Shown piece by piece: positions 961 to 43,754 of a stretch of DNA of 43,755 nucleotides; positions within the stretch are counted from its first letter, which is position 1; the number at the start of each line of letters is the position of its first letter. A program made the translations under genes and the position numbers. Origin of the DNA: Candidatus Competibacterales bacterium. GTDB lineage: Bacteria > Pseudomonadota > Gammaproteobacteria > Competibacterales > JAHEDQ01. The stretch spans positions 1-43,755 of the forward strand of contig JBFGYN010000001.1 in assembly GCA_041587415.1 (NCBI GenBank), read 5' to 3'. The notes under the pieces are model-generated. The model made no database searches and was not told the DNA's origin. It saw only the letters and a program-made list of their open reading frames with translations.

Positions 961-2903
961 TTCCTGTACCTCTTGGTGATGAAGCCCTCGGCCCCGAGAG
1001 TCAAGGTCGGTGCCCACGGTGGGGCGGCGCTCATGCACTTGATCAACCGCTCTAGATCAGCCTCTGCTTGCTCGGCGAGGCTCTCTACAATGATCTCGTC
1101 GTGAACGTGGCCTACAACGTATAGCCCTTTTGTTTCTGCTTGAGCCATACCGTGCATAAGGATGTCACGAGCGATGGCTTGCACAATGTTCTCGGTGATC
1201 TTTCCACCGTGGGTCGAGATCCGCTCCCATCGCCCGGTGTACTGGCTTTTGCCCATGTAGCTGAATGCGAGCCGGTCCCACTGATTCAACGTTACCGCAG
1301 GCTGGTAGTAGCACAAGCGACGACCAGACGGCAGCTCGATGAATAGAAAATTCTCATCCCGAAAGATGCGAACACTGTAGCCTCGAAGTTCGCCGCCGGC
1401 CCGACCGTTCTCGGCGATCGTCATGCAAGCATTTGAGAGCCAGTGCCACATTTCAGGGATCTCGTAATACATTTCTCGAAACAAACTCACCGCGCGCTGG
1501 GCGAACTCTTCGCTCATCTCTACACCCATGCCCGCAGCGTAGTCCACTAGGCCTCGCGCTCCGAGCTGGTAGCCGCAGCCGAGGGTGGGCGGCTTCGCAT
1601 AGGTGCGCTGTTCTTTGGTGATGGCGTTCTCGGGCTGCTCGAACAAGTAACTGGCAAAGTGAATGTACGCATCGCCCCCGGTGCGAAATATCGCGTTTAA
1701 ACGTTCACAGTTCGAAACGTAGCCAAGCAGAACGGACTCGATCGACTTGAGATCGGCCACGCATAAAAGGCTTCCTGAGGGCGCGGTCACCGCGTTGCGG
1801 ATACCAGACACCAGGGCTTCCATCACGTCTTCATAGAAGGCTGTCACCAGCTCCAGGCTGCCAGTGCTCAAGATCTCGGGGAGCCCCGCTAACGGAACGC
1901 TTGGCCAGGGCAGATTCTGAGGCTGAAAGATCCGACCCGCCCACCGTCCGGTACGGCTTGCGCCCCACAACTGCAACGTGCCGCGAAGTCTGTCATCTTC
2001 ATTAACTGCCCGTTGAATCGCGGCCCACTTGGCCGGTGAAGTCTTCGAAGCTTGTTGTTGAAGCTGCAACACCGTGTGCGCTAGGTCATCTGGGGCACGT
2101 TCGAGTGCAGCAGCGATGGTCGCCTTCTGTAGGTTCGGCAGCTCGGGCATTCCGTTGGTGTGCAGCCAGCCCAACATCTGTGGCTGACTGTTCGGGTTGT
2201 CGAGCCCGGTTAGCTGTTGCATGACGCGGTGTAAACGGGCTTGCTCTTCTTTGTGCAGCTTTACGCAGGCGTCGACTAGCACGGTGTCCACGGGCAGCCC
2301 ACGATCGTTGATCATCTGATCGAACGAGTACTCGCCCCAGTGGGTTTTAGTCAGGGGGTACCGTTTCAAGCGATCATGTATCGCGCGCTCAGCGGTTACA
2401 TCGGTGCGGTTGTACTCCAGGAAAAGCTCCCAGTCTTCGGGAGCCATCTCCGGGGTCCACCGTGTGGCAGAATTGTACTTAGTCGGCTTACGGGGGCTGC
2501 AGAACTTATTAACCAGTCGCGTGCCACCTTTGATCTTCTGCTGGTCTTGCGGGAGCTCTAGCTGCTCGCCAACGTCTCGCAGGGTGCCGAAGAACCCGAG
2601 CGCGTAGGCGTGAGACATGACGCAATAGAACCGTGAGATCGGAAGCTGGAGCCCGAGCACGTGCCAGAAGATCAGTCGTTCGAACCGTGCGTTGAACGCG
2701 GCGATCTTGGCTTTCGGGTAGCGCTCTAGAAACGTGAGCAGCCCCGCTGGGTGTCTTTCTTCCTGGGTGACGGGTTCAATGCCTACCGCCCACGCAGTAA
2801 GCAGCAGCTCGCAGCTAGGGTGTCGAGCGTATCGATCCGCTCCGACCTTCTTGATGTTCAGCTTGCAGAACGTTTCGAAGTCGACGTGCACTAGGGGGGT
2901 CAT
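957..2903 (-). CDS. Family A DNA polymerase with N-terminal 3'-5' exonuclease domain
   Basis: 648-aa ORF. The N-terminus VHVDFETF is ExoI-like and the C-terminus VGHVHDEIIVE is Pol A motif C. An AGGAGG Shine-Dalgarno (SD) sequence lies at 2912-2917 on the minus strand. Confidence 0.93.
   Translation of the reverse strand: MTPLVHVDFETFCKLNIKKVGADRYARHPSCELLLTAWAVGIEPVTQEERHPAGLLTFLERYPKAKIAAFNARFERLIFWHVLGLQLPISRFYCVMSHAYALGFFGTLRDVGEQLELPQDQQKIKGGTRLVNKFCSPRKPTKYNSATRWTPEMAPEDWELFLEYNRTDVTAERAIHDRLKRYPLTKTHWGEYSFDQMINDRGLPVDTVLVDACVKLHKEEQARLHRVMQQLTGLDNPNSQPQMLGWLHTNGMPELPNLQKATIAAALERAPDDLAHTVLQLQQQASKTSPAKWAAIQRAVNEDDRLRGTLQLWGASRTGRWAGRIFQPQNLPWPSVPLAGLPEILSTGSLELVTAFYEDVMEALVSGIRNAVTAPSGSLLCVADLKSIESVLLGYVSNCERLNAIFRTGGDAYIHFASYLFEQPENAITKEQRTYAKPPTLGCGYQLGARGLVDYAAGMGVEMSEEFAQRAVSLFREMYYEIPEMWHWLSNACMTIAENGRAGGELRGYSVRIFRDENFLFIELPSGRRLCYYQPAVTLNQWDRLAFSYMGKSQYTGRWERISTHGGKITENIVQAIARDILMHGMAQAETKGLYVVGHVHDEIIVESLAEQAEADLERLIKCMSAAPPWAPTLTLGAEGFITKRYRK
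1695..1702. repeat. GTTTAAAC octamer, copy 1 of 17
   Basis: In the polymerase gene, read on the minus strand as CGT TTA AAC (R-L-N). Confidence 0.95.
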
Positions 2904-2918
2904 GCGTCAAACCTCCTG

Positions 2919-2944
2919 AAAAAAGAGGGGACCGAAGTCCCCTC
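2919..2944 (-). terminator. Rho-independent terminator or attenuator between the SSB-like and polymerase genes
   Basis: On the minus strand, stem GAGGGGAC (2937-2944) pairs with GTCCCCTC (2925-2932) around a 4-nt loop, followed by TTTTTT (2919-2924). Confidence 0.7.
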
Positions 2945-2967
2945 AAGCCCCCAACATTCTGTCGGGC

Positions 2968-3630
2968 TTAGCCCATCCAGTTCATCGGACCGGGGCCGGG
3001 TTTGGCGTCGCCACCGTTGCCCGTCGGTCGCCCCGGCGCAACGGAAGCCGTACCCGGTGCAGGTGTCGGTGAAACCGGTGCCGGCCCGCCTTTGACCTCG
3101 ACAGCCTCGAACACTTGCGCCGCATCTTTTCGCCCGTCCAAACGGGGCAACGTGCGATCGGTGATCTGCACCGCGTTCAGGCCCCAGCTCACGCCGCGAT
3201 TGGTGGTCACGTCGTAAGCGAAAGCGTTCAGGTACGCGCTCACACCCATGCCCGGGTAAACGTCCCCCGGCTGTGCTGGCAGTGTCGGCTTCTCCTGCAC
3301 CACGGTAGGCTTGCTATCAGCCTTCGCTGATGCCGAGATCATGAATCTGCCCTCGAACTGTGGATCCGCGTCAGTTCCGTTCTTCCACGGCATCTGCAGA
3401 TTGGCCGGAGGCTTGCCGCCCCACTTGTTCTCGATCGCAGCGGTCACTGCGCCATTGAGTACGGCCCAATCTGCCTCGGTCAGATCCTCGGGCAAAATGA
3501 ACGCAGCCGAAAACTTCGGGTCTCCGCGTTCCGCAACCCGTCGAGCTTCGAAGAGGTGCGGATAGCTGATGATGCAGTTGCGGATGTACACCGCCGTCTT
3601 GCTGTTTTCCACGAAAGTCACGTAGCTCAT
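2968..3630 (-). CDS. DUF2815-type single-stranded DNA-binding protein
   Basis: 220-aa ORF. The N-terminus MSYVTFVENSKTAVYIRNCIISYPHLFE is typical of DUF2815. It sits between the DUF2800 and Pol A genes, as in the known DUF2800-DUF2815-PolA phage replication module. Confidence 0.75.
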   Translation of the reverse strand: MSYVTFVENSKTAVYIRNCIISYPHLFEARRVAERGDPKFSAAFILPEDLTEADWAVLNGAVTAAIENKWGGKPPANLQMPWKNGTDADPQFEGRFMISASAKADSKPTVVQEKPTLPAQPGDVYPGMGVSAYLNAFAYDVTTNRGVSWGLNAVQITDRTLPRLDGRKDAAQVFEAVEVKGGPAPVSPTPAPGTASVAPGRPTGNGGDAKPGPGPMNWMG

Positions 3631-3642
3631 TTCACTGTCCTC

Positions 3643-3650
3643 GTTTAAAC
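3643..3650. repeat. GTTTAAAC octamer, copy 2
   Basis: Untranslated. On the minus strand it reads GTTTAAACGAGGAcagtgaaATG, leading into gene 2968..3630. Confidence 0.95.
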
Positions 3651-3658
3651 GTGATGCT

Positions 3659-5074
3659 TCAGTCCAAGAAGCTCATGTCCGGCGCTTTCTTCTCTTCGAC
3701 AGGTTCGAAGATCCGCGCCGGGTCGGTCACGACCTCCGGCCGTGAATCGGTTTCCAGTGCGATGACAGGCTTGCCGCCGTCGCGCTGGATCAACTCTTTT
3801 ACCTTGTTCCAGCCCCGGGCGCTGAGTAGCGGCTTCAGTCGCTTTTCGGCCTGAGCGGGACTCAAGATCTTCTCGTCCAAGTAATCGGACTTCTTGAGCT
3901 TGCCGCCCCCGTGATCCTTGGTGCGGACGACCGAGGCAAACACTTTGCGGGCTTCCTCTTCGCTGCTCCAGGAGCGCGACGCCCGGCCCAAGACCAACTT
4001 GAACCCGGGCACCTTGGTGCCGGCTTTCATAAGCTTGTGCGCGTGCTCGTGCACCGCGTTCAGCCAGCCGCGAATCAGCGGCTCGGCTTCCAGTATGGCA
4101 GCGAGCCCCTGTGCGTCCAGCTCGTCCGGAGAGCGCGACAGAAGGCCGAAGTACCCGTCCAGGCTGCCGGGGCTCTCTGGCGTAGCCTCAGTGAGTTCCT
4201 GGGGCGGTTGATTGTGCCCCGGACCGGGTGGCGGTACACGTTCCCAAGCAGGGGTGCTGTCATTGTTAGACATAGGCTTTTCCTCGAAAATGGCTGCAGC
4301 ACCTTCCAGTGCGTGCTTGCGTAGTGCAGGGCAGTTGGCTTTCGCCGGGCACCACCGACACTGTGTTTCACCGGGCACCAGGATCGGCTCAGGTGAATCG
4401 AGCGCACGGGTGGCAATGGCTTGGAGCTTGTCGCGCCAGTCCGCCATCTGCTCCGGGGTCCAAGTCATAGACCGCACGGGGTCGGCCCCTTGGTAGCGCG
4501 GTTGGATTATCTTGGTTCGGATCTCCTGAGCCTGCGCCGGTGTGCATTCTTTCAGAGCCCCGAGTGCATACAAGATTATCTGCGGATCGTCGGGCTCGAC
4601 CAGCTTTCCGCTGCCGTGTTTGTAATCGGCCACCTCCAGCACCCCACCACCGATGAGGATGATGTCTGCGGTTCCGTAGCAGTGTTCTGAACGATCCGGT
4701 TTAAACGAAGCACCAGGGATCACGTCGTGCTCCAACAGCAGCCGTTTCTCACCGTACTCGATAGCGTCCCAGCTTCGAGCGACTTCATTATGGGCGATAC
4801 GCAGCGCTGTCAGATCTTCAGCGTCCAGGGTCACCGGTTGCGTCAACCGGTTCTCTTCGGTGGGCTCCACCGTGAGGCTGGAGACTTTGGCAAAGTCTTT
4901 ACCCCTGCTCAGCCTGTGTAACCAGTGGTTCAGCACTTCCTGGGCGGCCGTGCCCCGCTCAGCTGCGGGGCTAGACCGGTCCTCGACATCCCGTGCTAGG
5001 TGTATGCTGCCCGGGCATAGGGTCCAGCGCGGTGCTGCGCTCGGAGCGAGTAGTGCGCGCTGGCGTTCAGTCAT
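3659..5074 (-). CDS. DUF2800 / Cas4-like PD-(D/E)XK exonuclease
   Basis: 471-aa ORF. It has the nuclease core GTADIILIGGGVLEVADYKHG and the Cys cluster CRWCPAKANC, plus an N-terminal Cys, which suggests an Fe-S cluster. Its ATG overlaps the upstream stop as ATGA. Confidence 0.8.
   Translation of the reverse strand: MTERQRALLAPSAAPRWTLCPGSIHLARDVEDRSSPAAERGTAAQEVLNHWLHRLSRGKDFAKVSSLTVEPTEENRLTQPVTLDAEDLTALRIAHNEVARSWDAIEYGEKRLLLEHDVIPGASFKPDRSEHCYGTADIILIGGGVLEVADYKHGSGKLVEPDDPQIILYALGALKECTPAQAQEIRTKIIQPRYQGADPVRSMTWTPEQMADWRDKLQAIATRALDSPEPILVPGETQCRWCPAKANCPALRKHALEGAAAIFEEKPMSNNDSTPAWERVPPPGPGHNQPPQELTEATPESPGSLDGYFGLLSRSPDELDAQGLAAILEAEPLIRGWLNAVHEHAHKLMKAGTKVPGFKLVLGRASRSWSSEEEARKVFASVVRTKDHGGGKLKKSDYLDEKILSPAQAEKRLKPLLSARGWNKVKELIQRDGGKPVIALETDSRPEVVTDPARIFEPVEEKKAPDMSFLD
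4699..4706. repeat. GTTTAAAC octamer, copy 3
   Basis: In the DUF2800 gene, read on the minus strand as TCG TTT AAA CCG (S-F-K-P). Confidence 0.95.
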
Positions 5075-5445
5075 TGGCTTGCTACCAGTGCCTTGGTGGC
5101 GTCGAGCACACCCTGGTACTGCTCGGGTTGCAGCTCCGAGAGCTTGTTGACGCCGAAGTTGGGGAACACCTCGTTCGGAACACGAGTCGGATCGGTCAGC
5201 TGGGACACCAGTCCCGCCATTGACTCGCGCAGCTGATCGATAGTCAGCTCAGGGGGCGGGGTCGTGACCTCCTGCACCGGAGGTGCGGCCTTCGCCGGCT
5301 TGGCCTTCTGGGGCTTCGCCGGCTTAGTCCCTATGTCGAGCCGCTGCTGTCCCGCATCCTCCAGAGTGGATTGACTCACGATCTCGATAATGGCCTGAGC
5401 CATCTCGCAATCGTGGGGGTTAGAGAGATCGATCGTCAGTTGCAT
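5071..5445 (-). CDS. Hypothetical protein with a Pro/Lys/Ala-rich linker
   Basis: 124-aa ORF, GAGG SD, translationally coupled to the DUF2800 gene. I recognised no motif. Confidence 0.6.
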   Translation of the reverse strand: MQLTIDLSNPHDCEMAQAIIEIVSQSTLEDAGQQRLDIGTKPAKPQKAKPAKAAPPVQEVTTPPPELTIDQLRESMAGLVSQLTDPTRVPNEVFPNFGVNKLSELQPEQYQGVLDATKALVASQ

Positions 5446-5456
5446 GGTGAGCTACC

Positions 5457-5783
5457 TCAAGTTTTGGGGCCGTAGACTCTGACCGACGCGGCCGTGCGGC
5501 GCAACTTGTCGCTAGTGTGCGCGGTGACCAGCTGACGCGACGGGTTCAGCTTTTTCGCCACTGCTTCCCAGTCGGTGACAGCAACCAGCTTTTCGCTCGC
5601 CTCGGTGACCGTCACACGGTAGTCGTCGTCCAGCTCGATAGTGCGCGCGCCACCGGCTTTGAGAGAGTCTTTCAAGAAAGCTTCCTGTCGCTTCAGGTCG
5701 GCCAGCTGAATCTGCACGTCAAGCAGTGCGCGTGCGGTGTCGACATCGGTGGTCGGAACGGGGAAAAAGACGTTCGGTTTCAT
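5457..5783 (-). CDS. Hypothetical coiled-coil protein; occupies the Gp157-like position upstream of DUF2800
   Basis: 108-aa ORF preceded by the conserved early leader gcactGAGGActgagccATG. Confidence 0.6.
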   Translation of the reverse strand: MKPNVFFPVPTTDVDTARALLDVQIQLADLKRQEAFLKDSLKAGGARTIELDDDYRVTVTEASEKLVAVTDWEAVAKKLNPSRQLVTAHTSDKLRRTAASVRVYGPKT

Positions 5784-5855
5784 GGCTCAGTCCTCAGTGC
5801 TCAGTTCACGTTGCGAAGTATGAGGGGCATCCCTGCCCCTGTCAACACCCTTGTA
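5784..5855 (-). promoter_or_regulatory. Early promoter cassette A
   Basis: The minus strand reads TTGACA (5840-5845), a 17-nt spacer, CATACT (5817-5822), then the shared leader gcactgaggactgagccATG. The spacer contains the inverted repeat AGGGGCA/TGCCCCT. Confidence 0.55.
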
Positions 5856-6503
5856 TCACCCTGCGTGCGCGGTCCCGTCGCAGTTCACATCCGGGCAGCG
5901 CAGCTCCGGGGCCTGCTCCAGCCACTTGCCCGTAGTGCGGAACACGAAGCCGCAAGTGTCGCACTCAGCCTTGATCATGCGCGTAGTCTGTTTCTTCTTG
6001 TTGCGAAGGTTGATCTTCGCGTGCGGATACGGGCCGAGCTTCGCGAGAATGGGCTGCACGGTTGCAGCGAAACGCTCGCCAACAGAGGTGTAACCTTTGC
6101 CGTGATACTCGTTGCCGATTGCAATGATCAGCCGTTTAAACGGGGCACGGTGGCCAACGGCGCAGCCGAGATACATGTGGCACATTTCGTGCGCCACGGT
6201 CTCGACAACTCCCATCACGTCGTCCTGCACCGGGCTCACTATCATCTCGGTGGTGCCGTCCGCGCTGGCAACCGGATCCCAGCACTCGCCGATGCGGGCA
6301 CGGGCCGACCCGCCACCCGGGAAGCTGCACGCGATGCGGTGCTTGGGCAGCTTCTCGAAGACGCGCCCGTGATTGTTCTCGGGGTTCGAGAAGATGTGCT
6401 CGTGAAGCTCCCGCACCAGGGCGCTGAGCCAGGACTCGCGCGTGTCGTGCGGGAAGTATGCAAGGCGGGGAAGGTTCGCGTTCTCGTGGGTCAGAAGGTT
6501 CAT
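5856..6503 (-). CDS. SprT-like zinc metallopeptidase with C-terminal zinc ribbon
   Basis: 215-aa ORF with the HExxH motif VAHEMCHMYLG and a C-terminal CDTCG...CPDVNCDG. Confidence 0.7.
   Translation of the reverse strand: MNLLTHENANLPRLAYFPHDTRESWLSALVRELHEHIFSNPENNHGRVFEKLPKHRIACSFPGGGSARARIGECWDPVASADGTTEMIVSPVQDDVMGVVETVAHEMCHMYLGCAVGHRAPFKRLIIAIGNEYHGKGYTSVGERFAATVQPILAKLGPYPHAKINLRNKKKQTTRMIKAECDTCGFVFRTTGKWLEQAPELRCPDVNCDGTAHAG
6134..6141. repeat. GTTTAAAC octamer, copy 4
   Basis: In the SprT-like gene, read on the minus strand as CCG TTT AAA CGG (P-F-K-R). Confidence 0.95.
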
Positions 6504-6570
6504 GGCTCAGTCCTCAGTGCACGTTTAAACAGTGTGGAGAGATCCTACAGGGCTGATACTGTAGTGTCAA
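6504..6570 (-). promoter_or_regulatory. Early promoter cassette B
   Basis: The minus strand reads TTGACA (6565-6570, containing the TGA stop of gene 6567..7010), a 17-nt spacer, TAGGAT (6542-6547), GTTTAAAC, then the shared leader and ATG 6503. Inverted repeat CTACAG/CTGTAG lies at 6545-6564. Confidence 0.6.
6523..6530. repeat. GTTTAAAC octamer, copy 5
   Basis: In the leader of early cassette B, between the -10 element and the SD. Confidence 0.95.
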
Positions 6571-7010
6571 CTCTTTTTGATGCACTCCGGACCGAGCCCG
6601 GACTTGATGCTCTCGGGGTGGGTCAGCTCGCGACCGCACCGGCCGCAGCGGTTCATATGGTGAACTTCGGCTTGCTCGCTAATGTCGCGATTGGCGTCGA
6701 GCATGTGAACCAGCCAGAGGAAGCCGCGCCAGCTGGGCGCGTCGCTGCCCACCTTGGATCCTTTAGTCTGATAGGCCACCAAAGTTCCGTTAGCTTTTCG
6801 CACTAGCATTCCAGCATAGGTGTAGTCGCGAGTGTTATCGGGGCCAGAGAGAACCGACACGAAAAATTTTCCGGAAATGAGACCGTTGGGGCTGGAAGCT
6901 TTGCCCGCTGTCGTCAACCGGTAGGTGTAGTGCCCGCCTGACGCCAAACTCTTCAGAGTGAACGTCGCGTTGCCTGCGGTGATGAAGCTTTTGATCTGCT
7001 CGCTATTCAT
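6567..7010 (-). CDS. Hypothetical protein with a C-terminal DUF6011-like zinc motif
   Basis: 147-aa ORF. The C-terminus CGRCGRELTHPESIKSGLGPEC matches the CxRCGRxLTxPxSxxxGxGPxC pattern. Confidence 0.65.
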   Translation of the reverse strand: MNSEQIKSFITAGNATFTLKSLASGGHYTYRLTTAGKASSPNGLISGKFFVSVLSGPDNTRDYTYAGMLVRKANGTLVAYQTKGSKVGSDAPSWRGFLWLVHMLDANRDISEQAEVHHMNRCGRCGRELTHPESIKSGLGPECIKKS

Positions 7011-7080
7011 GGCTCAGTCCTCGGTGCACGTGTAAACAGTTCAGAGGGGCATTATCGCCCCTCTGATACTGTCGTGTCAA
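7011..7080 (-). promoter_or_regulatory. Early promoter cassette C
   Basis: The minus strand reads TTGACA (7075-7080, containing the TGA stop of the helicase), an 18-nt spacer, GATAAT (7051-7056), GTTTACAC, the leader, then ATG 7010. The -10 hexamer forms the loop of a 9-bp hairpin, CAGAGGGGC/GCCCCTCTG (7042-7065). Confidence 0.7.
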
Positions 7081-8588
7081 CCCCCGTTCGGGAGGGCCAT
7101 GTGCACCTCCCGCTTGGCCCGAGTCGCTGCAACGTAAAGTAGGGCATTGGTCATGCGGCCGGCGGCGAGCTTGGCCGGGGCGAAGTACACCCGGTCAACA
7201 GTCTGCCCCTGGCAGCGGTGCACCGTCATCGCATAGTTGTAGCCAACGGGCAGGAACAAAGACTTGAAAGCGTGGTACGCCTTCCAGTTGCCGATCTCCT
7301 CGCAGTGCTCGGCAATGGCTCGCAGTCGCGCGGTGTAATCGGTGCCACCCAGCTTGGCGGTGTCGGCCTTCGACTCGGTCACCATGAACATGATCGGAAC
7401 CACCAAGCCGTTGTTCAGTTTGACGATGTAGCAGGGAACCCCTTCGACCTCGCCAGTCGTCACAGACTGCACGAGGTAAGACGTGCCGCTGTAGAACCGC
7501 ACGCGGTCCTCCTGAGTCGTACCGATGTCGGTTGTGGCCATCACCATCAAACGTTCATCCTCGATCACCGGCTCATGCTGGGCGCGCTCACTGCCGTAGA
7601 GTCCTGCACGGATCACTGCGTTAGCTTGCACGACATCGGTCCGGCGGAAGAACAGCATGCGCGCGTCCTCGCCCGGGCGGTCCATCAGGTCTTCGACGTA
7701 GCGCTCGATCATGTCGCTCACGCTGGCGTGAATGTGGATCCCCGTGCTGCCGGACCAGTTCTGCTCCGGAACCTGCGCCGGGGTGTTACGGGCCAGCTGC
7801 TCCAGCTGATACAGGTCAGAGTCCGCGCTGTAACGCATGGGCTGCGTTAGCTCGGCACTGACAGAGATCTTGGAAAGCACACTGTCAGTGTGCTGTCCGA
7901 CCGGGGGCAGCTGCTTCAGGTCACCGACGACCAGCAACTTGCCACCATAGCTCTCTGCCGCGCGCAGCAAGCGAGCGCCGATGTCGTCGGATACCATGCT
8001 GTACTCATCCACGATGAGCAGGCGGTGAGGGCTCAATCGGGCTACCAGCATCTCGCCACTGTCCGGCCCCCAAACGTACTCGGCCTTGGAGTCGACAAAC
8101 ACCTTCTCCAATCGCAGAGTGCTGGCGATCGTCTTCGGTTCGATCTTGAACGCGGCCAGCTGCTGCACGAGTACCTGAGTCGCGACATAGCTGGTAGCGC
8201 AAGCGTGCACGTTGTAGCCCAGCTCGATTGCACGACGGGCTACGTCCATGACGGTGTAGGACTTGCCGTAGCCTGCGCCACCTTCGAGCTTCGCGGCTGG
8301 CGCGTCACTCTGGAGCCACTCGGCGAGCAGGTCGGAGGCTGCCTGCTGGCTCGGGTTCAGGGTGTAGTTGACCTCGGTGGCCTGCACCGCGAGCAGCTGC
8401 TGGCTGTCGATAACAGCTCGAATGGCGTCCTGGTATTGATGTACGAAGTTCACCAGCCCGGGCCATGCGTCCGCCTCGCCCGCCTTCCGCAGCATCCAGC
8501 CCAGATAGCCCGGGTCAATGTTGGTGATCGGCGTGTCGCGGTACTTGCCGAAGGGGATGGTGATGATCTCGTGGTCGATGATGCTCAT
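7077..8588 (-). CDS. RecD/Dda-like superfamily 1 DNA helicase
   Basis: 503-aa ORF with Walker A GGAGYGKSYTV, Walker B LLIVDEYSMV and motif VI AMTVHRCQGQTVDRVY. The N-terminal IPFGKYRDTPI module is DUF3820-like. Confidence 0.88.
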   Translation of the reverse strand: MSIIDHEIITIPFGKYRDTPITNIDPGYLGWMLRKAGEADAWPGLVNFVHQYQDAIRAVIDSQQLLAVQATEVNYTLNPSQQAASDLLAEWLQSDAPAAKLEGGAGYGKSYTVMDVARRAIELGYNVHACATSYVATQVLVQQLAAFKIEPKTIASTLRLEKVFVDSKAEYVWGPDSGEMLVARLSPHRLLIVDEYSMVSDDIGARLLRAAESYGGKLLVVGDLKQLPPVGQHTDSVLSKISVSAELTQPMRYSADSDLYQLEQLARNTPAQVPEQNWSGSTGIHIHASVSDMIERYVEDLMDRPGEDARMLFFRRTDVVQANAVIRAGLYGSERAQHEPVIEDERLMVMATTDIGTTQEDRVRFYSGTSYLVQSVTTGEVEGVPCYIVKLNNGLVVPIMFMVTESKADTAKLGGTDYTARLRAIAEHCEEIGNWKAYHAFKSLFLPVGYNYAMTVHRCQGQTVDRVYFAPAKLAAGRMTNALLYVAATRAKREVHMALPNGG

Positions 8589-8656
8589 GGCTCAGTCCTC
8601 AGTGCTCGTGTAAACAGTACGGGGGCATTATCGCCCCCGTGATACTGTCGTGTCAA
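8589..8656 (-). promoter_or_regulatory. Early promoter cassette D
   Basis: The minus strand reads TTGACA (8651-8656), an 18-nt spacer, GATAAT (8627-8632) in the loop of hairpin CGGGGGC/GCCCCCG (8620-8639), GTTTACAC, the leader, then ATG 8588. Confidence 0.7.
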
Positions 8657-8666
8657 GCGGTTTCGG

Positions 8667-9218
8667 TCACTCGCGCATCGGCATGGCGATCAACGTAGCC
8701 CCTTTCAGGTTCATGAAGTTGGCCACGACAGGACCGAGGCCCTTTTTGTCGGCCGTTCGGAGCTTCACCCCCGGGTGCTCCAGGTCTAGCTCTCGCGTCG
8801 TGCGGGCGAGCAGCTCGGGGTTGATGATCAGCTGGTCGAAAGCCGTCTGCAGCGTGCTGGGCTCGGGTACCACTTTCGCCCAGTCCGGGAAGTCTCGGAT
8901 CGGGCTTTGCACGGGAACCTCGATAGAGAACGCGATGTCGTCGTTCCACTTCTGATAGATCAGCGTGGCCGTGGCCCCGCCTTCGTTCCAGCGCACCGTG
9001 ACTGCGCCGTTTTTGTATCCTCGCTTGATCTTGTTCTTCGGGTTGAAGAACAAGGTAAACGGCTCGCCGTCATGCTCGGTCGGAAGGATCAGCATGGCGT
9101 GGCCATCGATTGCAATCAGCTTGTTGTCCTCGACGCGGATGGCGTGCATTCCGCGCGTCTCATCTCCGAGGTTGGCAAGTAGTGCGTTAAAGTGGTCGCT
9201 GGGGATTACGATATACAT
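8667..9218 (-). CDS. Half-size DnaN (beta sliding clamp)-like protein
   Basis: 183-aa ORF with three colinear DnaN-like signatures: LIAIDGHAMLI (compare ATDGHRLA), RDFPDWAKVVP (compare FPDYRRVLP), and the C-terminal LIAMPMRE (compare VVMPMRL). Confidence 0.6.
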   Translation of the reverse strand: MYIVIPSDHFNALLANLGDETRGMHAIRVEDNKLIAIDGHAMLILPTEHDGEPFTLFFNPKNKIKRGYKNGAVTVRWNEGGATATLIYQKWNDDIAFSIEVPVQSPIRDFPDWAKVVPEPSTLQTAFDQLIINPELLARTTRELDLEHPGVKLRTADKKGLGPVVANFMNLKGATLIAMPMRE

Positions 9219-9289
9219 GGCTCAGTCCTCAGTGCTCGGTGTTGTTGAAACGCGAGAAGGATCTTGCCTGAGTGATACCAATGTGTCAA
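9219..9289 (-). promoter_or_regulatory. Early promoter cassette E
   Basis: The minus strand reads TTGACA (9284-9289), a 17-nt spacer, CAAGAT (9261-9266), GTTTCAAC, the shared leader, then ATG 9218. A 44-nt stretch is identical to cassette F except for one mismatch. Confidence 0.5.
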
Positions 9290-9345
9290 GCGGTTTCAGT
9301 CACTCGCGCATGGGGTAGGTAAAGTAGAGGGGCGTCATGCCCTCC

Positions 9346-9594
9346 TTAGTGATCTTGCTCGAAGCGTTCGGCCTCCATCGCAGCGCCGGCAGCCTCTTCT
9401 TTGATCTGCTCTCGCCAGTCGCGAGCCCTGCGCGTGACGTCCTGCATCGGCTCGCTGTTGAAAAGCTGCCGGCAAAGCTCGGCCGCGTCCTCTGGCGAGT
9501 AGATGCGGAGCCAGCGATAGTTCGCATCGAGAGAAAGGCCTTTCGCCTCTGCCCAGCGCTCCACCCGGCTCGGGTTGATTCCGTCGAATCCCAT
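9346..9594 (-). CDS. Hypothetical early protein (82 aa)
   Basis: The internal ATG 9594 (MGFDGINPSRVERW...) follows AGGAGAAGAAAG. The longer track ORF starting at 9699 would run through the promoter cassette. Confidence 0.6.
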   Translation of the reverse strand: MGFDGINPSRVERWAEAKGLSLDANYRWLRIYSPEDAAELCRQLFNSEPMQDVTRRARDWREQIKEEAAGAAMEAERFEQDH

Positions 9595-9665
9595 CTTTCT
9601 TCTCCTGGTGTGGCTGTTCGTTAAAACGCGAGAAGGATCTTGCCTGAGTGATACCAACGTGTCAA
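9595..9665 (-). promoter_or_regulatory. Early promoter cassette F, the first leftward promoter
   Basis: The minus strand reads TTGACA (9660-9665), a 17-nt spacer, CAAGAT (9637-9642), GTTTTAAC, then AGGAGAAGAAAG and ATG 9594. Confidence 0.5.
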
Positions 9666-9682
9666 GCTTTTTCTGCGGGGGC

Positions 9683-9712
9683 GTGACAGGATGGGCCACC
9701 GGGTGCTAGGCT
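9683..9712 (+). promoter_or_regulatory. Possible rightward promoter for the HTH gene
   Basis: GTGACA (9683-9688), an 18-nt spacer, TAGGCT (9707-9712). It is divergent from cassette F. The match to consensus is weak. Confidence 0.25.
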
Positions 9713-9740
9713 GACCCGATTGCATCACCGAGGAACGATC

Positions 9741-35326: not shown

Positions 35327-35328
35327 AC
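35321..35328. repeat. GTTTAAAC octamer, copy 14
   Basis: Read as GTT TAA ac ATG. It supplies the stop of 34703..35326 and abuts the start at 35329. Confidence 0.95.
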
Positions 35329-35949
35329 ATGACCATTGAATCGCCAGTCAACTACATCACTGACCTGGATCAGACGTATCCGGCGGATGGTGATTTTATT
35401 CCGGAGGGCGATAACCATATTCGGAACGTCAAGAAAGCTGTCAAGCAGACTTTGCCGAACGCTAACGCCCCGATCAATGCCACTCCAACCGAACTGAATA
35501 GCTTGGTGGGTCGGCAGAGCTTTATGCACGACTTCTTGCAGGCTGCCACGAAGTCGATAGCCCGAACAGCACTGAACATCGAAACCACGATCCGAGGCTC
35601 GGTGTCGCGACTGTTCACCGCGACTCAGATCCCGAGCTATAGAACTCACCTTGTCAGTACGCAAACGGTGGCAGTGTCCTGGGATGCCTCGCTGTATCAG
35701 ACCATCTTTCTGACCATTGATACCGCCGCAGATCCAGTTATTACTTGGAGCGGTGTGCAAAAGGGGGCCTTCTACACGTTGCACATTGTCAACACGGTGA
35801 TTGGCCGAACAGTGTCACATACCGGGGTCACCGTGGTCGACGGGGATAATGCGATTGCGCTCGATAACACCGCTGCTCGAAACGTCATGAGTTTCTTTGC
35901 AGAGAGTGCCACGGTGCTGAGGAAGCTGGGGCAAGAGAACTACTCGTAA
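35329..35949 (+). CDS. Hypothetical structural protein
   Basis: ATG 35329 (MTIESPVNYITDLDQ) lies 2 nt after the upstream stop. The longer track start at 35230 would overlap the upstream gene by about 100 nt. Confidence 0.5.
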   Translation: MTIESPVNYITDLDQTYPADGDFIPEGDNHIRNVKKAVKQTLPNANAPINATPTELNSLVGRQSFMHDFLQAATKSIARTALNIETTIRGSVSRLFTATQIPSYRTHLVSTQTVAVSWDASLYQTIFLTIDTAADPVITWSGVQKGAFYTLHIVNTVIGRTVSHTGVTVVDGDNAIALDNTAARNVMSFFAESATVLRKLGQENYS

Positions 35950-37007: not shown

Positions 37008-38572
37008 TGCCGAGAGAGCCCTACAACCCGCCGCTGTACCCCGTCCTGAACCTGGGCGAAGTGGGGCTCGTAAAGGATCTGATCCCGTTCGAGCTTCCCG
37101 CTAATGCGTGGAACGATCTAAAGAACATCCGGATGACCAATGACGGGGTGGAGAGCTTCCTCGGTGAAGAGCTTGCCATCACTCCAGCCATCGTGCCGCG
37201 TGGGTTCTTCCCGGTCACCTTGGGGCTGACGCATTACTGGGTTTATGTGGGGAACACCGCCGCGCGGGTGTACGACGGTGGCTCTAACACGGACATCTCG
37301 CCAACACCGGCCTTCACCGGGACCGATAGCGATCTGTGGGTCGGCACGGTGTTGAATGACAATCTGGTGATCACCAACGGGGTCGACGAGCCCCATTACT
37401 GGAACATGTCACCTGCGAGCCCCCTAGCCAAGCTGCCCGGCTGGCCGGCAGGAGGGATCTGTCAATTCATCGTCGCGTTTAAACACTTCTTGATCGCGCT
37501 GAATGTTCAGCTGGCAGGCTCGAACAACTTCAACATGGTGAAGTGGAGTCACGAAGCGGTGTCGGGAATGCCGACCAGCTGGGACGAAACAGATCCAACC
37601 CTCGATGCGGGCGAAAACCTCATCGGCGAGGAGACGGCACGATTGATCGGTGCCCAAGATCTTCGAGATACGCTGTACGTTTTTTCTGAGGGCAGCATGT
37701 ACGGTATGTCCTTAGTCGCAGGGTCGGACATCTTTCGGTTCTTTGAGGTTTCACAGAACACCGGGCTGGTGGCGCGGCGAGCGGTGACCACGTTCGAGGG
37801 GCAGCAAGGCCCGGTGATGGCTTTCCTGTCCAACGGTGATCTGGTCTACAGCGACGGGCAGCAGCTGGTAAGCATGGTGCACCATCGGATCCGAGATTGG
37901 CTGTTCAAGAACATCGATCAGGACAACTATGTGTCTTCGGTGTTGCTGAACAATCGGCCGAAGAAAGAACTGTGGCTCGGGTTCCCGATCAATGGCGAGA
38001 GCACGTTGACTCACGCACTTGTGTGCGACTACGACAGTCCGACGCTCCCGTGGTCGGTTCGAGAGCTGCCAGCGAACACTCGGGATCTGGCTCGGGGAGT
38101 AGACCTCGATACGTCACCTTTGACCTGGGCGAACCTCAACATTCCGTGGAGTTCAGCTTCCGATCGAAAGTGGGGAGATTCGAGCTTCAACGCGACCCAG
38201 GACTCGGTGTTGATTGCCACCGACACCGCTGTTTACAAGGCCGACGTGGGGAACCTCTTCGAAGGTGCGACTAAAGAAGCCGTAGCCGAGCGTACCTCGA
38301 TGAACCTGAGCCCCGACAATCAGGTGGTCGAGGTAACGGGGGTCCGGCTCTCGGCCAACGGGCAGCCGTTCGAGGTGACCGTGGGCACGCACATGGAACC
38401 TGGAGCCCCGGTGCAGTGGGGCACGACGCGCACGTTTACACCGGGGCAGGACTACCGGATCGATGCTCGGTCTACAGGGCGACTCGCGGCGCTACGACTG
38501 CGTAGCCTGGACGACAGCTACTGGCGGGTGAAGTCAGTGGCCTTCGAGTATTGGCCGCTGGGGGACCGATGA
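37007..38572 (+). CDS. Putative tail tubular B or nozzle-like protein
   Basis: 521-aa ORF. It lies upstream of the internal-virion-type genes, as in T7-like gene order. I recognised no motif. Confidence 0.35.
   Translation: MPREPYNPPLYPVLNLGEVGLVKDLIPFELPANAWNDLKNIRMTNDGVESFLGEELAITPAIVPRGFFPVTLGLTHYWVYVGNTAARVYDGGSNTDISPTPAFTGTDSDLWVGTVLNDNLVITNGVDEPHYWNMSPASPLAKLPGWPAGGICQFIVAFKHFLIALNVQLAGSNNFNMVKWSHEAVSGMPTSWDETDPTLDAGENLIGEETARLIGAQDLRDTLYVFSEGSMYGMSLVAGSDIFRFFEVSQNTGLVARRAVTTFEGQQGPVMAFLSNGDLVYSDGQQLVSMVHHRIRDWLFKNIDQDNYVSSVLLNNRPKKELWLGFPINGESTLTHALVCDYDSPTLPWSVRELPANTRDLARGVDLDTSPLTWANLNIPWSSASDRKWGDSSFNATQDSVLIATDTAVYKADVGNLFEGATKEAVAERTSMNLSPDNQVVEVTGVRLSANGQPFEVTVGTHMEPGAPVQWGTTRTFTPGQDYRIDARSTGRLAALRLRSLDDSYWRVKSVAFEYWPLGDR
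37477..37484. repeat. GTTTAAAC octamer, copy 15
   Basis: In CDS 37007..38572 as GCG TTT AAA CAC (A-F-K-H). Confidence 0.95.
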
Positions 38573-42844: not shown

Positions 42845-43754
42845 CACCCTTCTGCCGGCGGTACTCGTTCATCGCGGCCTTGAGCCCGTCTTGAGTCTGG
42901 CCCTTGTCGTTTAAACTCATAGCGACCAGCCGGTCCACGGTGTCTTCGGATAGCAACCGGTGCACGCGGATATTGTTGCGCTGGCCTTGTCGCACGAGTC
43001 GAGCGATCACTTGCTCATAATTCTCAAGCGACCAGTCGAGTCCGAAGAACACGAGATCGGTGCACGGCCCCTGCTGCAGATTCAAGCCATGCCCCATGCT
43101 TTGGGGGTGGCCTAGCAACAGGGGCACTTCGCCCAGGTTCCACCGCTGCTCTAAGTCGATAGTCTTAGCAGTGCTCAGGTGTGAGCCTAGTATCTCGGCC
43201 TCGGGGAACCGTTTCTGAATGCGCTCGGCATCGTGTTTAAACAGATACGCCACCAGCACCGGCTTACCGGCAGCCTCTTCGATGACCTCGGCCAGCGCGT
43301 CCAACTTCAGATCGTGAACGTGCACCCACTCCGGCGAGTCGGACTGCAGATACATCGCACCGTTGGTGAACTGGCGGCACTTCATTGACAACGCGGCAGC
43401 GTAGAAGACCTCGATATTCACGGTGTCCAGCTCCAGGAACATTTCGCGCTCTAACTGTTCGTACTTGGTCCGCAGCTCTCCGACGATGGGCACATCCACG
43501 TCATTGATCAAGATCTCCGGCAGCTCCAGGTAATCGGCACTGTCCATCTGCAGGGTGATATCTTCAATCTGATCGTGGATCTGCTGCTCGGCTCCAGGTC
43601 GGCAACGGTGACGGCCGAAGTGTCCGTATCCGTCAAAGTACATGTACCGGTCACGAAACGCGGTGATGCTCTGCCCCAGCCTCTGACCGCTATCAATGGC
43701 CAGGAACTGACCAAAGAGGTTGTCGTACCCGTTGCTCGCGGGAGTGCCGGTCAA
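42756..43754 (-). CDS. SNF2-family helicase, C-terminal part (continuation of 1..677)
   Basis: The track ORF begins TGTPASNGYDNLFGQ, the same sequence encoded at 1-141. The helicase C-domain is visible as LLGHPQSMGHGLNLQ and QVIARLVRQGQ (motif VI). Confidence 0.88.
   Translation of the reverse strand: MTGTPASNGYDNLFGQFLAIDSGQRLGQSITAFRDRYMYFDGYGHFGRHRCRPGAEQQIHDQIEDITLQMDSADYLELPEILINDVDVPIVGELRTKYEQLEREMFLELDTVNIEVFYAAALSMKCRQFTNGAMYLQSDSPEWVHVHDLKLDALAEVIEEAAGKPVLVAYLFKHDAERIQKRFPEAEILGSHLSTAKTIDLEQRWNLGEVPLLLGHPQSMGHGLNLQQGPCTDLVFFGLDWSLENYEQVIARLVRQGQRNNIRVHRLLSEDTVDRLVAMSLNDKGQTQDGLKAAMNEYRRQKGVTRSTAPAHHKVLAPRSRQSAPPPLPGSG
42909..42916. repeat. GTTTAAAC octamer, copy 16
   Basis: In the SNF2 gene, read on the minus strand as AGT TTA AAC (S-L-N). 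Confidence 0.95.
43235..43242. repeat. GTTTAAAC octamer, copy 17
   Basis: In the SNF2 gene, read on the minus strand as CTG TTT AAA CAC (L-F-K-H). Confidence 0.95.

Follow-up and report, generated by a model that had tools for sequence, protein, structure and literature searches.

Occurrence of the octamer in the phage genome

The window, the entire 43,755-nucleotide stretch of phage DNA analysed here, contains 17 exact copies of the octamer GTTTAAAC, one at each of the coordinates listed in the original prediction. Its description as a 43.6-kb GC-rich genome (58.7% GC) stands, with the correction that the window is a circular assembly whose 141-bp terminal overlap leaves 43,614 bp of unique genome. 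The sites, for which no strand is assigned, and three genes discussed below are the following (L numbers denote relatives):

1695 to 1702: family-A DNA polymerase gene, aa 401, read nGT-TTA-AAC; position shared with L201 (aa 402) and with L203, where the word is GTTTAAAT
3643 to 3650: intergenic, just ahead of the Shine-Dalgarno sequence of the ssDNA-binding protein gene, 13 nt upstream of its start; equivalent intergenic site in L201 at 3285
4699 to 4706: DUF2800 PD-(D/E)XK nuclease gene, read nnG-TTT-AAA-Cnn; no conservation in the relatives compared
5856 to 6503, minus strand: SprT-like protein, a weak candidate reader by distribution only
6134 to 6141: SprT-like gene, aa 122; position shared with L201
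6523 to 6530: 5' leader of an early sigma70-type promoter cassette; comparable leader context in L204 at 2144
10047 to 12530, plus strand: prim-pol fused to an SF3-type helicase (NrS-1/pRN1 type), a candidate reader
10513 to 10520: prim-pol/helicase gene, aa 156
11521 to 11528: prim-pol/helicase gene, aa 492; position shared with L002/L204, L205 and L008 despite 39-46% protein identity
13912 to 13919: small hypothetical gene
14450 to 15001, plus strand: Dam-family N6-adenine methyltransferase (NPPY motif, PF05869), outside the conserved system
17522 to 17529: terminase large subunit gene, aa 224; relatives have sites at other positions of this gene
18990 to 18997: portal gene, aa 170, in a conserved Gly-Leu-Asn; position shared with L002
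21020 to 21027: LPD23-domain virion gene
25293 to 25300: TAA stop of the scaffold gene, 14 nt ahead of the major capsid gene start; arrangement repeated in L002 at 15215
26396 to 26403: intergenic, directly behind the major capsid gene; TTTAAA-core site behind this gene also in L002, L008 and L009 (by inspection)
35321 to 35328: TAA stop of the adaptor gene, touching the next ATG; site beside the adaptor stop codon of L201 at 14644
37477 to 37484: virion structural gene, aa 158; position shared with L201 (aa 159)
42909 to 42916: SNF2 helicase gene, aa 472; L201 site at aa 475
43235 to 43242: SNF2 helicase gene, aa 364; position shared with L203

By count, GTTTAAAC is the top-ranked 8-mer of the window genome. 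The claim that fewer than one copy should be expected holds under each null model: dinucleotide shuffles yield 0.24 copies on average (maximum 2), a zero-order model yields 0.29, and the higher-order Markov counts suggested as a check (order 1-3) give only 0.18-0.48. The chance frequency of the octamer lies about 60-70 times below that in the window (~0.4 sites per kb), and the word would consequently distinguish phage DNA from that of a host with similar composition. G..C flanks are present on 17 of the 19 TTTAAA hexamers, the exceptions being TTTTAAAA at 14875 and ATTTAAAT at 27300; the octamer rather than TTTAAA is therefore the unit, as had been proposed, and its boundaries at 8 bp are sharp, with no sequence information outside the 8-mer. 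The one-mismatch variants noted previously are present at 7030, 8608, 9244, 9620 and 20585, the first four within paralogous early promoter-leader cassettes.

Selection on a DNA-level word

The distribution over reading frames is exactly as claimed: six copies are read nGT-TTA-AAC, six nnG-TTT-AAA-Cnn, two supply GTT-TAA stop codons (scaffold protein, 25293; adaptor protein, 35321), and three are intergenic (3643, 6523 and 26396). In the codon usage of the window, TTA makes up 4% of the Leu, TTT 31% of the Phe and AAA 32% of the Lys codons. The codon-preserving shuffle proposed earlier, carried out as 2000 within-gene synonymous codon shuffles, yields a mean of 0.48 copies (maximum 4) against the 12 observed in coding sequence, and the probability that at least 12 of the 19 synonymous opportunities in the window are realised is ~3e-15. 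Synonymous opportunities for a genome's own octamer are taken in 46 of 78 cases (40-70% per genome), whereas none of the 64 opportunities for the octamer with the other flanks, a zero-hit control, is used. Conservation at orthologous positions, likewise suggested as a check, is found for 11 of the 16 comparable window sites, whose position is kept in a relative. With the codon-aware null failing, orthologous positions conserved and the enrichment recurring in relatives, the view that selection acts on the DNA rather than on the protein is strongly supported: GTTTAAAC is a selected DNA-level word, indifferent to reading frame and gene orientation.

A signal acting in RNA or translation (a processing site, pausing at rare codons or the slippery heptamer U_UUA_AAC), or an artefact arising from assembly or from codon usage, would accommodate the six sites in the X_XXY_YYZ frame and the five at gene boundaries, but we regard it as most improbable. 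The sites occur in every frame and in genes of either orientation, the word is strictly palindromic and exchanges its flanks symmetrically in relatives, the codon-preserving null falls short by 25-fold, and the enrichment is reproduced in independent assemblies (JGI, ENA, Tara, Logan). This explanation thus conflicts with the distribution over frames and with the codon-aware null; nothing supports the RNA processing signal, one of the functions originally considered, or a frameshift site.

Relatives and the cyanobacterial HIP1 palindrome

Enrichment of the octamer spans uncultured, high-GC podophages of three deeply separated sublineages with portal identities of about 44-68%, at 0.4-0.8 sites per kb (0.6-0.8 in the relatives). 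The genomes L001-3, L201 and L204 (portal 65-68% identical) have 24 sites in ~42 kb, L205/L206 have 3 sites in 4.7 kb, and L008 and L203 (portal 45%) have 22 sites in 44 kb. In L009, L123 and L124 (portal 44%), CTTTAAAG stands in place of GTTTAAAC: the core is identical, and both flanks are swapped symmetrically from G..C to C..G. Half-changed words on the same core, GTTTAAAT and CTTTAAAC, are found occasionally, and about 190 further relatives show no comparable octamer enrichment. Spacing is significantly even in L002 (CV 0.30, P ~1e-4), L009 (CV 0.43, P 0.002), L008 (CV 0.58, P 0.02) and L201 (CV 0.47, P 0.03); that of the window is not (CV 0.82), with site-free stretches of 8.9 kb and 5.4 kb.

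GTTTAAAC also has a cellular counterpart, the HIP1 palindrome of cyanobacteria. HIP1, GCGATCGC, is a perfect 8-bp palindrome in 15-300-fold excess (0.3-2.7 sites per kb) that is conserved among genomes and depends on neither frame nor codon usage; its variants GGGATCCC and TCGATCGA keep the core with both flanks altered, its one-off variants are also somewhat enriched, and its function is debated (PMC5861425, PMC4390886). Both words are thus frame-independent, conserved 8-bp palindromes with flank variants on a fixed core. They differ in that HIP1 is cellular and phylum-wide and is accompanied by two orphan methyltransferases (GATC, CGATCG), whereas the phage octamer, AT-rich in its core within a GC-rich genome, is a trait of 42-44-kb viruses in three sublineages without a conserved methyltransferase. 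HIP1 has a periodicity of 10-90 kb; the phage octamer is spaced at 1-2.5 kb.

This close resemblance (PMC5861425, PMC4390886) also brings in the mutational ratchet that Elhai proposed for HIP1 (PMC4390886), by which the phage sites would be a by-product of methylation and biased repair; amelioration toward a word-rich host genome is a related possibility. We consider such an origin unlikely. Even spacing, significant in four relatives, is not predicted by a pure mutational ratchet, one-mismatch neighbours are not depleted, near-cognate words are left unconverted in four paralogous leaders, and the relatives have no phage methyltransferase. The site-free 8.9 kb of the window offers just one synonymous opportunity, so that no recent acquisition has to be assumed. 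HIP1 itself is maintained by selection according to Xu et al. (PMC5861425).

Methylation was moreover proposed in a more direct form, with the octamer as the target of the Dam-family enzyme. The window does encode an N6-adenine methyltransferase (PF05869) that bears an NPPY motif, restriction-modification enzymes typically read strict 8-bp palindromes, and GTTTAAAC is the PmeI recognition site, which would bring in a host restriction-modification system of that type. We nevertheless rate either reading as very unlikely. The methyltransferase is absent from L002, L201, L204, L008, L203 and L009, and hence from every enriched relative, including the fully covered L002-type genome, which largely refutes the octamer as its target; methylation by itself gives no reason for sites to accumulate; and real restriction-type sites have been purged from this phage (CTCGAG, 0 vs ~20 expected; CCGCGG, 0 vs ~25 expected).

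A putative co-evolving phage reader

Sites spaced about 1-2.5 kb apart in this phage and its relatives suggest marks on the DNA that are read by a phage protein. Judging from these sequence patterns, the GTTTAAAC copies are probably (at a likelihood of roughly 0.65) under selection as recognition sites for a phage reader that co-evolves with them. Such a reader would be a phage-encoded, sequence-specific and two-fold-symmetric protein acting on duplex DNA, and its specificity would co-evolve with its sites.

As a counterpart of GTTTAAAC we propose the 9-mers that accompany nicks in tf, the LUZ24-like phages and Rembedalsseter, all of them Pseudomonas podophages. By virion genes, tf and the LUZ24-like phages are the nearest cultured relatives of the window phage (portal 31%, capsid 35-39%; the adaptor and one further virion protein are also common). 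Phage tf carries 14 mapped single-strand nicks at TACT/RTGMC, and within its group the nick-site positions are alike while the main motif is lineage-specific (PMC3517423); Rembedalsseter has 13 nicks at WACTRTGAC, a motif enriched in 60 relatives (PMC11780129). From similar positions combined with a lineage-specific word, the authors infer co-evolution of nickase and sites (PMC3517423, PMC11780129). Like GTTTAAAC, the tf-type motif is a strict short word, present in 13-14 copies in ~45 kb at tens of times chance, in genic as well as intergenic positions, and both systems include sites that overlap a start or stop codon. Their layout is nearly identical: a mean gap of 2693 bp in tf and 2565 bp in the window, CVs of 0.83 and 0.82, a gap of 9.1 kb and 8.9 kb, respectively, in the structural half, and a denser early half (0.56 vs 0.27 sites per kb in the window).

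The two systems differ in that the tf-type motif is an asymmetric 9-mer on one strand only (12:0 in tf), whereas the octamer is a perfect 8-bp palindrome present on both strands, and in that the tf-type nicks were mapped by experiment, whereas the window phage is uncultured and known from its sequence alone. All nick motifs known to us (T5, phiKMV-like, tf/LUZ24-like) lack symmetry and occur on a single strand, and we know of no nickase gene in the phages that carry them. As nicking of both strands would break the genome, the choice of strand would need another cue. What the window phage has in common with tf is confined to virion genes, the replication genes being unrelated, and homology of both systems can consequently not be shown. 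The suggestion of T5-type nicks thus gains from the equally enriched nick motif of the nearest cultured relatives and loses by the palindrome, which breaks the one-strand rule. On this analogy we tentatively propose that the reader may be a DNA-processing enzyme that, late in infection, would mark or interrupt one strand at GTTTAAAC; no candidate for it was found among the genes scanned. A strand-processing role is the most likely reading, with re-priming by the prim-pol and pure binding as close rivals.

In the first of these rivals, the prim-pol/SF3 helicase would start lagging-strand or restart synthesis at GTTTAAAC as a priming or helicase-loading site. Template recognition by primases is exemplified by the T7 enzyme, which uses GTC. 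The window protein (827 aa) joins a prim-pol domain like that of pRN1 ORF904 to an NrS-1-like helicase domain, and both of these enzymes have known template recognition (GTG for both, and the 8-nt TTTGGTTA for NrS-1; PMC8718748). A palindrome would give the prim-pol a site on each strand, and the spacing of 1-2.5 kb, even at 1-2 kb, approximates the scale of Okazaki fragments. Each of the three sublineages with the motif has the gene, the most divergent version (28%) being that of the CTTTAAAG lineage, and two motif-free relatives have other primase architectures (L202, VapE; L207, AAA_25). What makes this function, possible for an NrS-1/pRN1-type enzyme as originally suggested, doubtful in our view is that the motif-free Thiohalocapsa phage LS06-2018-MD04 combines a full-length prim-pol homologue (30%) with the same virion module, yet has only 3 TTTAAA. 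Recognition by prim-pols is, moreover, effectively 3-4 nt and relaxed, and the 8-nt word reported for NrS-1 proved dispensable, GTG being preferred (PMC8718748). Unlike GTTTAAAC, the primase words are read on single-stranded template, are non-palindromic and have no reported genome-wide enrichment; a monomer on single-stranded DNA explains neither the palindrome nor the symmetric flank switch. The 8.9-kb and 5.4-kb site-free stretches speak against priming as well, and the spacing statistics are the same in tf-type phages, whose primase is of the DnaB type.

The second rival holds that the copies are non-catalytic sites for a dimeric phage DNA-binding protein, a self-mark serving genome organisation or condensation, nuclease protection or global silencing. 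A dimeric binder would fit the perfect palindrome and its symmetric flank switch, the constant core with occasional half-changed sites, the genome-wide coverage (evenly spaced in relatives) and the rarity of the word by chance in GC-rich DNA. Dispersed binding has analogues in RK2 KorB operators, mycobacteriophage L5 stoperators and Noc/SlmA sites. Operator sets such as the L5 stoperators, the phiC31 conserved inverted repeats and the RK2 KorB/KorA operators comprise tens of copies over a 40-60-kb element with one element-encoded reader, and are found on plasmids or temperate phages whose repressor or ParB-type protein has been identified. They are, however, longer (12-17 bp), variation-tolerant and mostly intergenic, whereas GTTTAAAC is a strict 8-mer with 12 of 17 copies inside genes; nor was a helix-turn-helix, ParB, integrase or repressor-like protein detected among the genes scanned. 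The DNA-binding protein put forward originally is thus left without a candidate gene, and we judge this reading rather unlikely.

With regard to the co-evolving reader that we prefer, the distribution of the SprT-like gene deserves mention: it is absent from all three motif-free relatives examined and present in L002-type and L008-type genomes.

Excess of the octamer and selection on the DNA word

The podophage-type genome in the window carries terminase, portal, capsid and tail genes. Its assembly is circular with a terminal overlap of 141 bp, leaving a unique genome of 43,614 bp with 58.7% GC; the identity of bases 1-141 with bases 43615-43755 points to a circular assembly of a permuted or terminally repeated genome, and not to real ends. 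A leftward early/replication block starts near 10 kb, crosses the assembly junction and reaches 42.7 kb; its products are an SNF2 helicase, a family-A DNA polymerase, an Enc34-type ssDNA-binding protein, a DUF2800 PD-(D/E)XK nuclease, an SprT-like protein, a DUF6011 protein, an SF1 helicase and a RusA-like resolvase. The rightward block comprises a prim-pol fused to an SF3-type helicase, a Dam-family methyltransferase, the terminase, an SU10-type portal, a scaffold protein, the major capsid protein, an adaptor, a cell-wall hydrolase and tail proteins. A DNA-level comparison with INPHARED gave no close or near match to the window. The following features are referred to in the text:

5856-6503, gene for the SprT-like protein
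6503-9700, minus strand, five paralogous early promoter-leader cassettes
9776-10048, gene for a 90-aa protein
10047-12530, plus strand, prim-pol fused to an SF3-type helicase
13187-13666, gene for a 159-aa protein directly downstream of the prim-pol
14450-15001, gene for a Dam-family methyltransferase (NPPY), within the clade present in the window phage only
26404-35320, longest stretch free of GTTTAAAC (8.9 kb), covering tail and internal-protein genes

The original prediction had drawn attention to 17 copies of the palindrome GTTTAAAC, a TTTAAA core flanked by G and C, and had assigned them to different reading frames. Upon re-counting, each of these 17 positions holds an exact GTTTAAAC, which is the commonest 8-mer of the entire window genome. 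Dinucleotide-preserving shuffles of the window contain on average 0.24 copies and never more than two, the zero-order expectation is 0.29, and Markov models of orders 1-3 predict 0.18-0.48; the resulting excess is 59-71-fold, at a density of 0.39 per kb. Models of orders 4-6 (2.8 to 15 copies expected) absorb the signal trivially and were discarded as not meaningful. Our curated gene list reproduces the predicted distribution over frames: six sites are read nGT-TTA-AAC, six nnG-TTT-AAA-Cnn, two provide the TAA stop codon of the scaffold gene (25293) and the adaptor gene (35321), and three are intergenic (3643, 6523 and 26396).

When synonymous codons were shuffled within genes (2000 times), a mean of 0.48 and a maximum of 4 copies were obtained, compared with 12 in the actual coding sequence; TTA accounts for just 4% of the leucine codons. 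We also counted the places at which the protein permits an octamer through synonymous choice. For GTTTAAAC, 12 of 19 such opportunities are realised in the window (probability about 3e-15), while none of 23 is realised for the control octamer CTTTAAAG, in which the flanks are C and G. The pressure is thus exerted on the word in the DNA: it suffices to fill the majority of free opportunities and discriminates between flanks. In the window, 17 of the 19 TTTAAA hexamers have the G and C flanks. Chance, codon usage and peptide content are excluded as causes of the enrichment.

Outside of the 8-mer no position is informative, save for a weak C at -1 and a weak G at +1 in two lineages, and the word is bounded as sharply as a restriction site. 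Its one-mismatch neighbours are not depleted in the window (11 found, about 6.4 expected for zero- and one-mismatch words jointly), and the transition variant GTTTAAAT is enriched when the clade is pooled (7 versus 0.3). Near-cognate words also occur among the five early cassettes, each of which consists of TTGACA, 17-18 nt, GATAAT, a conserved leader with GTTTAAAC or a one-mismatch version of it, and then gaggactgagccATG. The cassettes lie upstream of the genes starting at 6503, 7010, 8588 and 9218, and of a fifth gene whose ATG follows the variant at 9620 by about 29 nt. One cassette carries the perfect site at 6523, the other four one-mismatch copies.

The octamer among related phages

Relatives were reached via portal and polymerase homologues, with contigs from JGI, ENA/Tara, IMG/VR and Logan (loci are given L-numbers here). 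The window phage itself is contained in the sequencing runs SRR29257408, SRR29257491, SRR29257480 and SRR29257497. The GTTTAAAC observation is real, very strong and conserved in the clade, in which portal identities separate three deep sublineages. In the first, which unites the window with the L002 type (portal 65-68% identical), the loci L002, L201 and L204 jointly span one genome of about 42 kb with 24 copies of GTTTAAAC, and all TTTAAA of the L002-type genome fall within the octamer. The second (L008 and L203 type; portal 45%) has 22 copies in 44 kb and a few GTTTAAAT. The third (L009, L123 and L124 type; portal 44%, with L009 and L123 being 60% identical) is devoid of GTTTAAAC and instead carries 12 copies of CTTTAAAG in 17.8 kb, versus 0.08 expected; it includes a cluster found on 41 contigs, some of them from Tara Oceans. 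A further lineage (L205/L206), of which the prim-pol region alone is known, has three sites in 4.7 kb. The excess in relatives reaches about 300-fold, at 0.6-0.8 copies per kb. Nothing comparable was found in about 190 other loci with related portals, including prophages of Alphaproteobacteria and all lower-GC relatives. Since the same signal is present in independent projects, an assembly artefact is excluded as its cause.

Table. Synonymous opportunities realised for the lineage's own octamer and for the other octamer
Locus; own octamer; other octamer
L002; 9/13; 0/9
L201; 4/10; 0/8
L008; 7/11; 0/11
L203; 5/12; 0/6
L009 (own CTTTAAAG, other GTTTAAAC); 9/13; 0/7
Pooled, including the window; 46/78; 0/64

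An RNA processing signal, one of the functions originally suggested, or a frameshift signal is not compatible with these data: the sites fall in all three frames and in genes of both orientations, the octamer is a palindrome, and the flanks switch symmetrically between lineages.

The conservation of sites at orthologous positions that the original prediction had proposed to test is evident, as 11 of 16 comparable window sites have a counterpart at the same position in the L002-type genome, where the proteins are 46-70% identical; for this comparison, intergenic and stop-codon sites were placed from the site listings of the relatives. A site at codon 492 of the prim-pol is common to four lineages and, by inspection, one directly follows the major capsid gene in all three sublineages. 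Sites not conserved in position turn over. Close genome pairs are either 97-99.9% or about 70% identical, which deprived a substitution-rate test of power.

When compared with random placement, the gaps between sites are even in L002 (CV 0.30, P about 1e-4), L009 (0.43, P 0.002), L008 (0.58, P 0.02) and L201 (0.47, P 0.03); in the window itself even spacing is not significant (CV 0.82). There, the site density is twofold higher in the early/replication block (0.56 per kb) than in the structural block (0.27 per kb). The longest site-free stretch offers just one synonymous opportunity for the octamer, and the genes that it covers at 26892-34706 have no detectable homologue in any relative. A pure mutational ratchet would predict neither even spacing nor leaders left unconverted at a near-cognate word, which speaks against it. 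Contig ends and sites do not coincide consistently, as judged by inspection. One contig of the L002 type (L201, Ga0074475_10704608, position 1-13) ends 5 nt from a GTTTAAAC site, which is probably a coincidence, as other contig ends are not near sites.

Candidate readers and comparison with phage nick motifs and HIP1

A symmetric dimer reading duplex DNA would be the simplest account of the perfect two-fold symmetry of the word, and likewise of the complementary change of both flanks in the sister lineage, where a single change of monomer specificity would alter both flanks together. Half-changed sites, GTTTAAAT and CTTTAAAC, occur occasionally and fit this picture. So strict a word is more suggestive of an enzyme than of a regulator, and the even spacing is suggestive of a function that depends on the distance to the nearest site. 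On the grounds of symmetry, strictness and even spacing we therefore hold, with a probability of roughly two in three, that selection maintains the GTTTAAAC sites for recognition by a reader which the phage encodes and which co-evolves with its site.

Which protein might be the reader? The original prediction named several candidates. The Dam-family methyltransferase drops out as a conserved factor: JGI Pfam tables, tblastn and a motif-IV scan detected no such enzyme in the relatives, including the fully covered L002-type genome, and it is consequently not conserved along with the sites. The idea of a genome-wide DNA-binding protein survives in the form of a non-catalytic dimeric binder, which would share the symmetry argument, but searches of all early and small proteins against Pfam, PHROGs, NCBIfam and PDB sequences yielded no DNA-binding candidate, and we regard such a binder as unlikely. 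Screening gene presence and absence revealed no gene both confined to motif-bearing genomes and of informative function. The genes for the SprT-like and the 90-aa protein are present in L002- and L008-type genomes and missing from three motif-free relatives; by this distribution alone they are leads, not evidence.

The prim-pol (PF09250 plus DUF5906, with PDB matches to pRN1 ORF904 at aa 3-141 and to NrS-1 at aa 476-665) was also put forward, as a protein that recognizes GTTTAAAC on its template. It is present in all motif-bearing sublineages, template recognition words exist for both NrS-1 and pRN1 (PMC8718748), and the spacing of the sites is on the scale of Okazaki fragments. These points stand, but a 30%-identical full-length homologue is encoded by the motif-free Thiohalocapsa phage LS06-2018-MD04, which has the same virion module and only three TTTAAA, and a reader of single strands gives no reason for the symmetry. 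The search for homologues found two full-length relatives, which limits the independent co-occurrence test to this one outgroup. A winged-helix match in the C-terminus of the prim-pol was sub-threshold (E 0.15) and is not counted as evidence, and an AlphaFold model of this region made with no alignment was unusable (pLDDT 43). We consider it improbable that the prim-pol is the reader.

Searches with the portal and capsid identified LUZ24-like Pseudomonas phages, tf and Rembedalsseter as the nearest named cultured relatives (portal 31%, capsid 35-39% identical). Homologues also exist for the adaptor and one virion protein, with 27-39% identity over the virion genes overall, and neither replication genes nor the terminase are detectably shared with the tf/LUZ24 group. 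In tf, 14 nicks have been found, all within TACT/RTGMC and all on one strand; putative sites of this type lie at similar positions in PaP3, LUZ24 and phiMR299-2, the main word differs by lineage, and co-evolution of a nickase with its sites was proposed (PMC3517423). Rembedalsseter has 13 nicks at WACTRTGAC, a word enriched in 60 related phages (PMC11780129); these nicks came to light through mapped reads, by way of read-start pile-ups or coverage drops on one strand. As a control, our enrichment statistic recovers the tf motif (ACTGTGAC, 12 copies versus 1.2 expected, strands 12:0).

Table. Distribution of the tf nick word and of GTTTAAAC
Property; tf; window
Copies of word; 14; 17
Mean gap (bp); 2693; 2565
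CV of gaps; 0.83; 0.82
Longest gap, in the structural half; 9.1 kb, nick-free; 8.9 kb
Density; first ten nick sites about 1.5 kb apart, early half; 0.56 (early) and 0.27 (structural) per kb

Like the nick motifs, GTTTAAAC is a strict short word with dispersed copies (about 10-15 per 45 kb in the nicked phages; 17 versus 0.24-0.29 expected in the window), its positions are shared among relatives, and the word varies by lineage, here between GTTTAAAC and CTTTAAAG. Several sites overlap start or stop codons in both tf and the window. The parallel with T5-type nicks, as originally suggested, extends to copy number, spacing, shared positions and turnover, but not to confinement to one strand: the nick motifs are asymmetric, whereas GTTTAAAC is its own reverse complement, and its flanks display no strand asymmetry (CGTTTAAA has strand counts of 12:8 for the window and 6:6 for L201). 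The tf/LUZ24 nicks were mapped experimentally; for the window phage, the comparison uses assembled sequence. By analogy, site-specific strand processing as mapped in the tf/LUZ24 group is our preferred, though tentative, suggestion for the role of the reader. The chief obstacle is the presence of a palindrome on both strands: another cue would have to choose the strand if the genome is to stay intact. Such a cue might come from the direction in which an enzyme translocates, or from a first nick that blocks the second.

The second point of reference is HIP1 (GCGATCGC), an 8-bp palindrome of cyanobacteria with a 15-300-fold excess that is frame-independent and conserved, whose flank variants GGGATCCC and TCGATCGA retain the core, and whose function is still open (PMC5861425, PMC4390886). 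GTTTAAAC resembles it as a perfect 8-bp palindrome whose excess and density in the window fall within the range of HIP1 (15-300-fold, 0.3-2.7 per kb), which is not accounted for by codon usage or peptide content, and which is conserved across genomes, its lineage variants differing in the flanks but not in the core. HIP1, by contrast, is a trait of the cyanobacterial chromosome and co-occurs with orphan methyltransferases acting on sub-words, whereas GTTTAAAC resides in a 43.6-kb phage genome and the relatives lack the methyltransferase of the window phage. As an explanation of the sites, a repair process like that envisaged for HIP1, or one driven by the host, is rated as very doubtful.

GTTTAAAC is best filed as a symmetric variant of two unexplained kinds of sequence, the nick-associated motifs and the highly iterated palindromes. 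Since the one-strand confinement of the former and the associated methyltransferase and cellular chromosome of the latter are not found here, we claim resemblance and not membership. Two puzzles meet in this clade, the thousands of HIP1 palindromes in cyanobacteria (open for about 30 years) and the site-specific nicks of T5, phiKMV-like and LUZ24/tf-like phages (open for about 50 years): its palindrome is of the HIP kind, yet in copy number, spacing and pattern of turnover it behaves like a nick motif of phages. Full-text searches for GTTTAAAC led only to cloning primers and to work on other subjects; to our knowledge, the enrichment is undescribed, and the literature searched links neither GTTTAAAC nor TTTAAA-core palindromes to phage genomes. 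It is conceivable, albeit speculative, that this marine-type podophage clade tags itself with an evenly spaced, two-fold-symmetric 8-bp mark nearly absent from GC-rich host DNA, and that a co-evolving phage protein reads the mark for strand processing, re-priming or protection. If true, no highly iterated palindrome of a virus would have preceded it, the mark would be related, in symmetric form, to the phage nick motifs that still lack an explanation, and a genome of about 50 genes could reveal what iterated words do. The natural specificity switch from GTTTAAAC to CTTTAAAG offers a handle for finding the reader by covariation or gene swaps between lineages, with GTTCAAAC named beside these two as a further oligonucleotide. 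An enriched strict word is also a simple sequence-only flag for phages likely to have structured DNA marks, which bear on sequencing, cloning and restriction analysis.

Other palindromes, repeats and genes

CTCGAG and CCGCGG are both missing from the window (0 versus 19.7 +/- 4.1 and 0 versus 25.4 +/- 5.0 expected), a classic avoidance of XhoI- and SacII-type restriction sites. CCGCGG is not avoided in the relatives L201 and L204, so its avoidance is specific to the lineage of the window or to its host. A host restriction site would be purged, as these two are (about 20 and 25 expected), and GTTTAAAC was rejected as a PmeI-type site of this kind. Phages consequently do not only purge palindromes: the window loses every CTCGAG and CCGCGG, yet accumulates GTTTAAAC. 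GATC is present at the expected frequency (313 versus 305).

The 159-aa protein encoded downstream of the prim-pol is conserved throughout the three sublineages as well as in the Thiohalocapsa phage and gave no family or structure match. Its C-terminus is an acidic tail with an aromatic residue (EESEHDFLD), which we take to be reminiscent of the polymerase-binding tails of T7 gp2.5 and gp4.

Palindromes that contrast with genome composition were not upheld as a general trait of the relatives. L018 (IMGVR_UViG_3300014206_002454, 113-11093; 42% GC, portal 35% identical) has ten dispersed CGGCCG in 11.5 kb, where 0.65-3.7 are expected depending on Markov order; borderline after correction for multiple testing, this could be a comparable case, with a GC-rich palindrome set in a genome rich in AT, and the nearest relatives are without it. 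An enrichment of TGGCCA in L067 and L072 vanished under an order-2 model. GGCC is nearly missing from the low-GC relatives L040, L056, L071 and L080 (0-3 versus 10-30 expected), as though a HaeIII-type restriction site were being avoided. Other strongly enriched 8-mers in relatives turned out to be local iteron clusters or tandem repeats, and not dispersed marks. The iterons are dense, short and in both orientations within 250-400 bp (GGGTCACC, seven copies at 7026-7433 of L079; ACCTAACC, eleven at 8000-8228 of L068; TAGTTACA, nine at 5582-5955 of L019) and look like replication origins or regulatory regions. In the Thiohalocapsa phage (L210), a 15-bp tandem repeat resembling GGCTAACCTTCRGRG, with about 12 or more units, is found at 35240-35600, inside a gene annotated as 'RNA-binding protein'.
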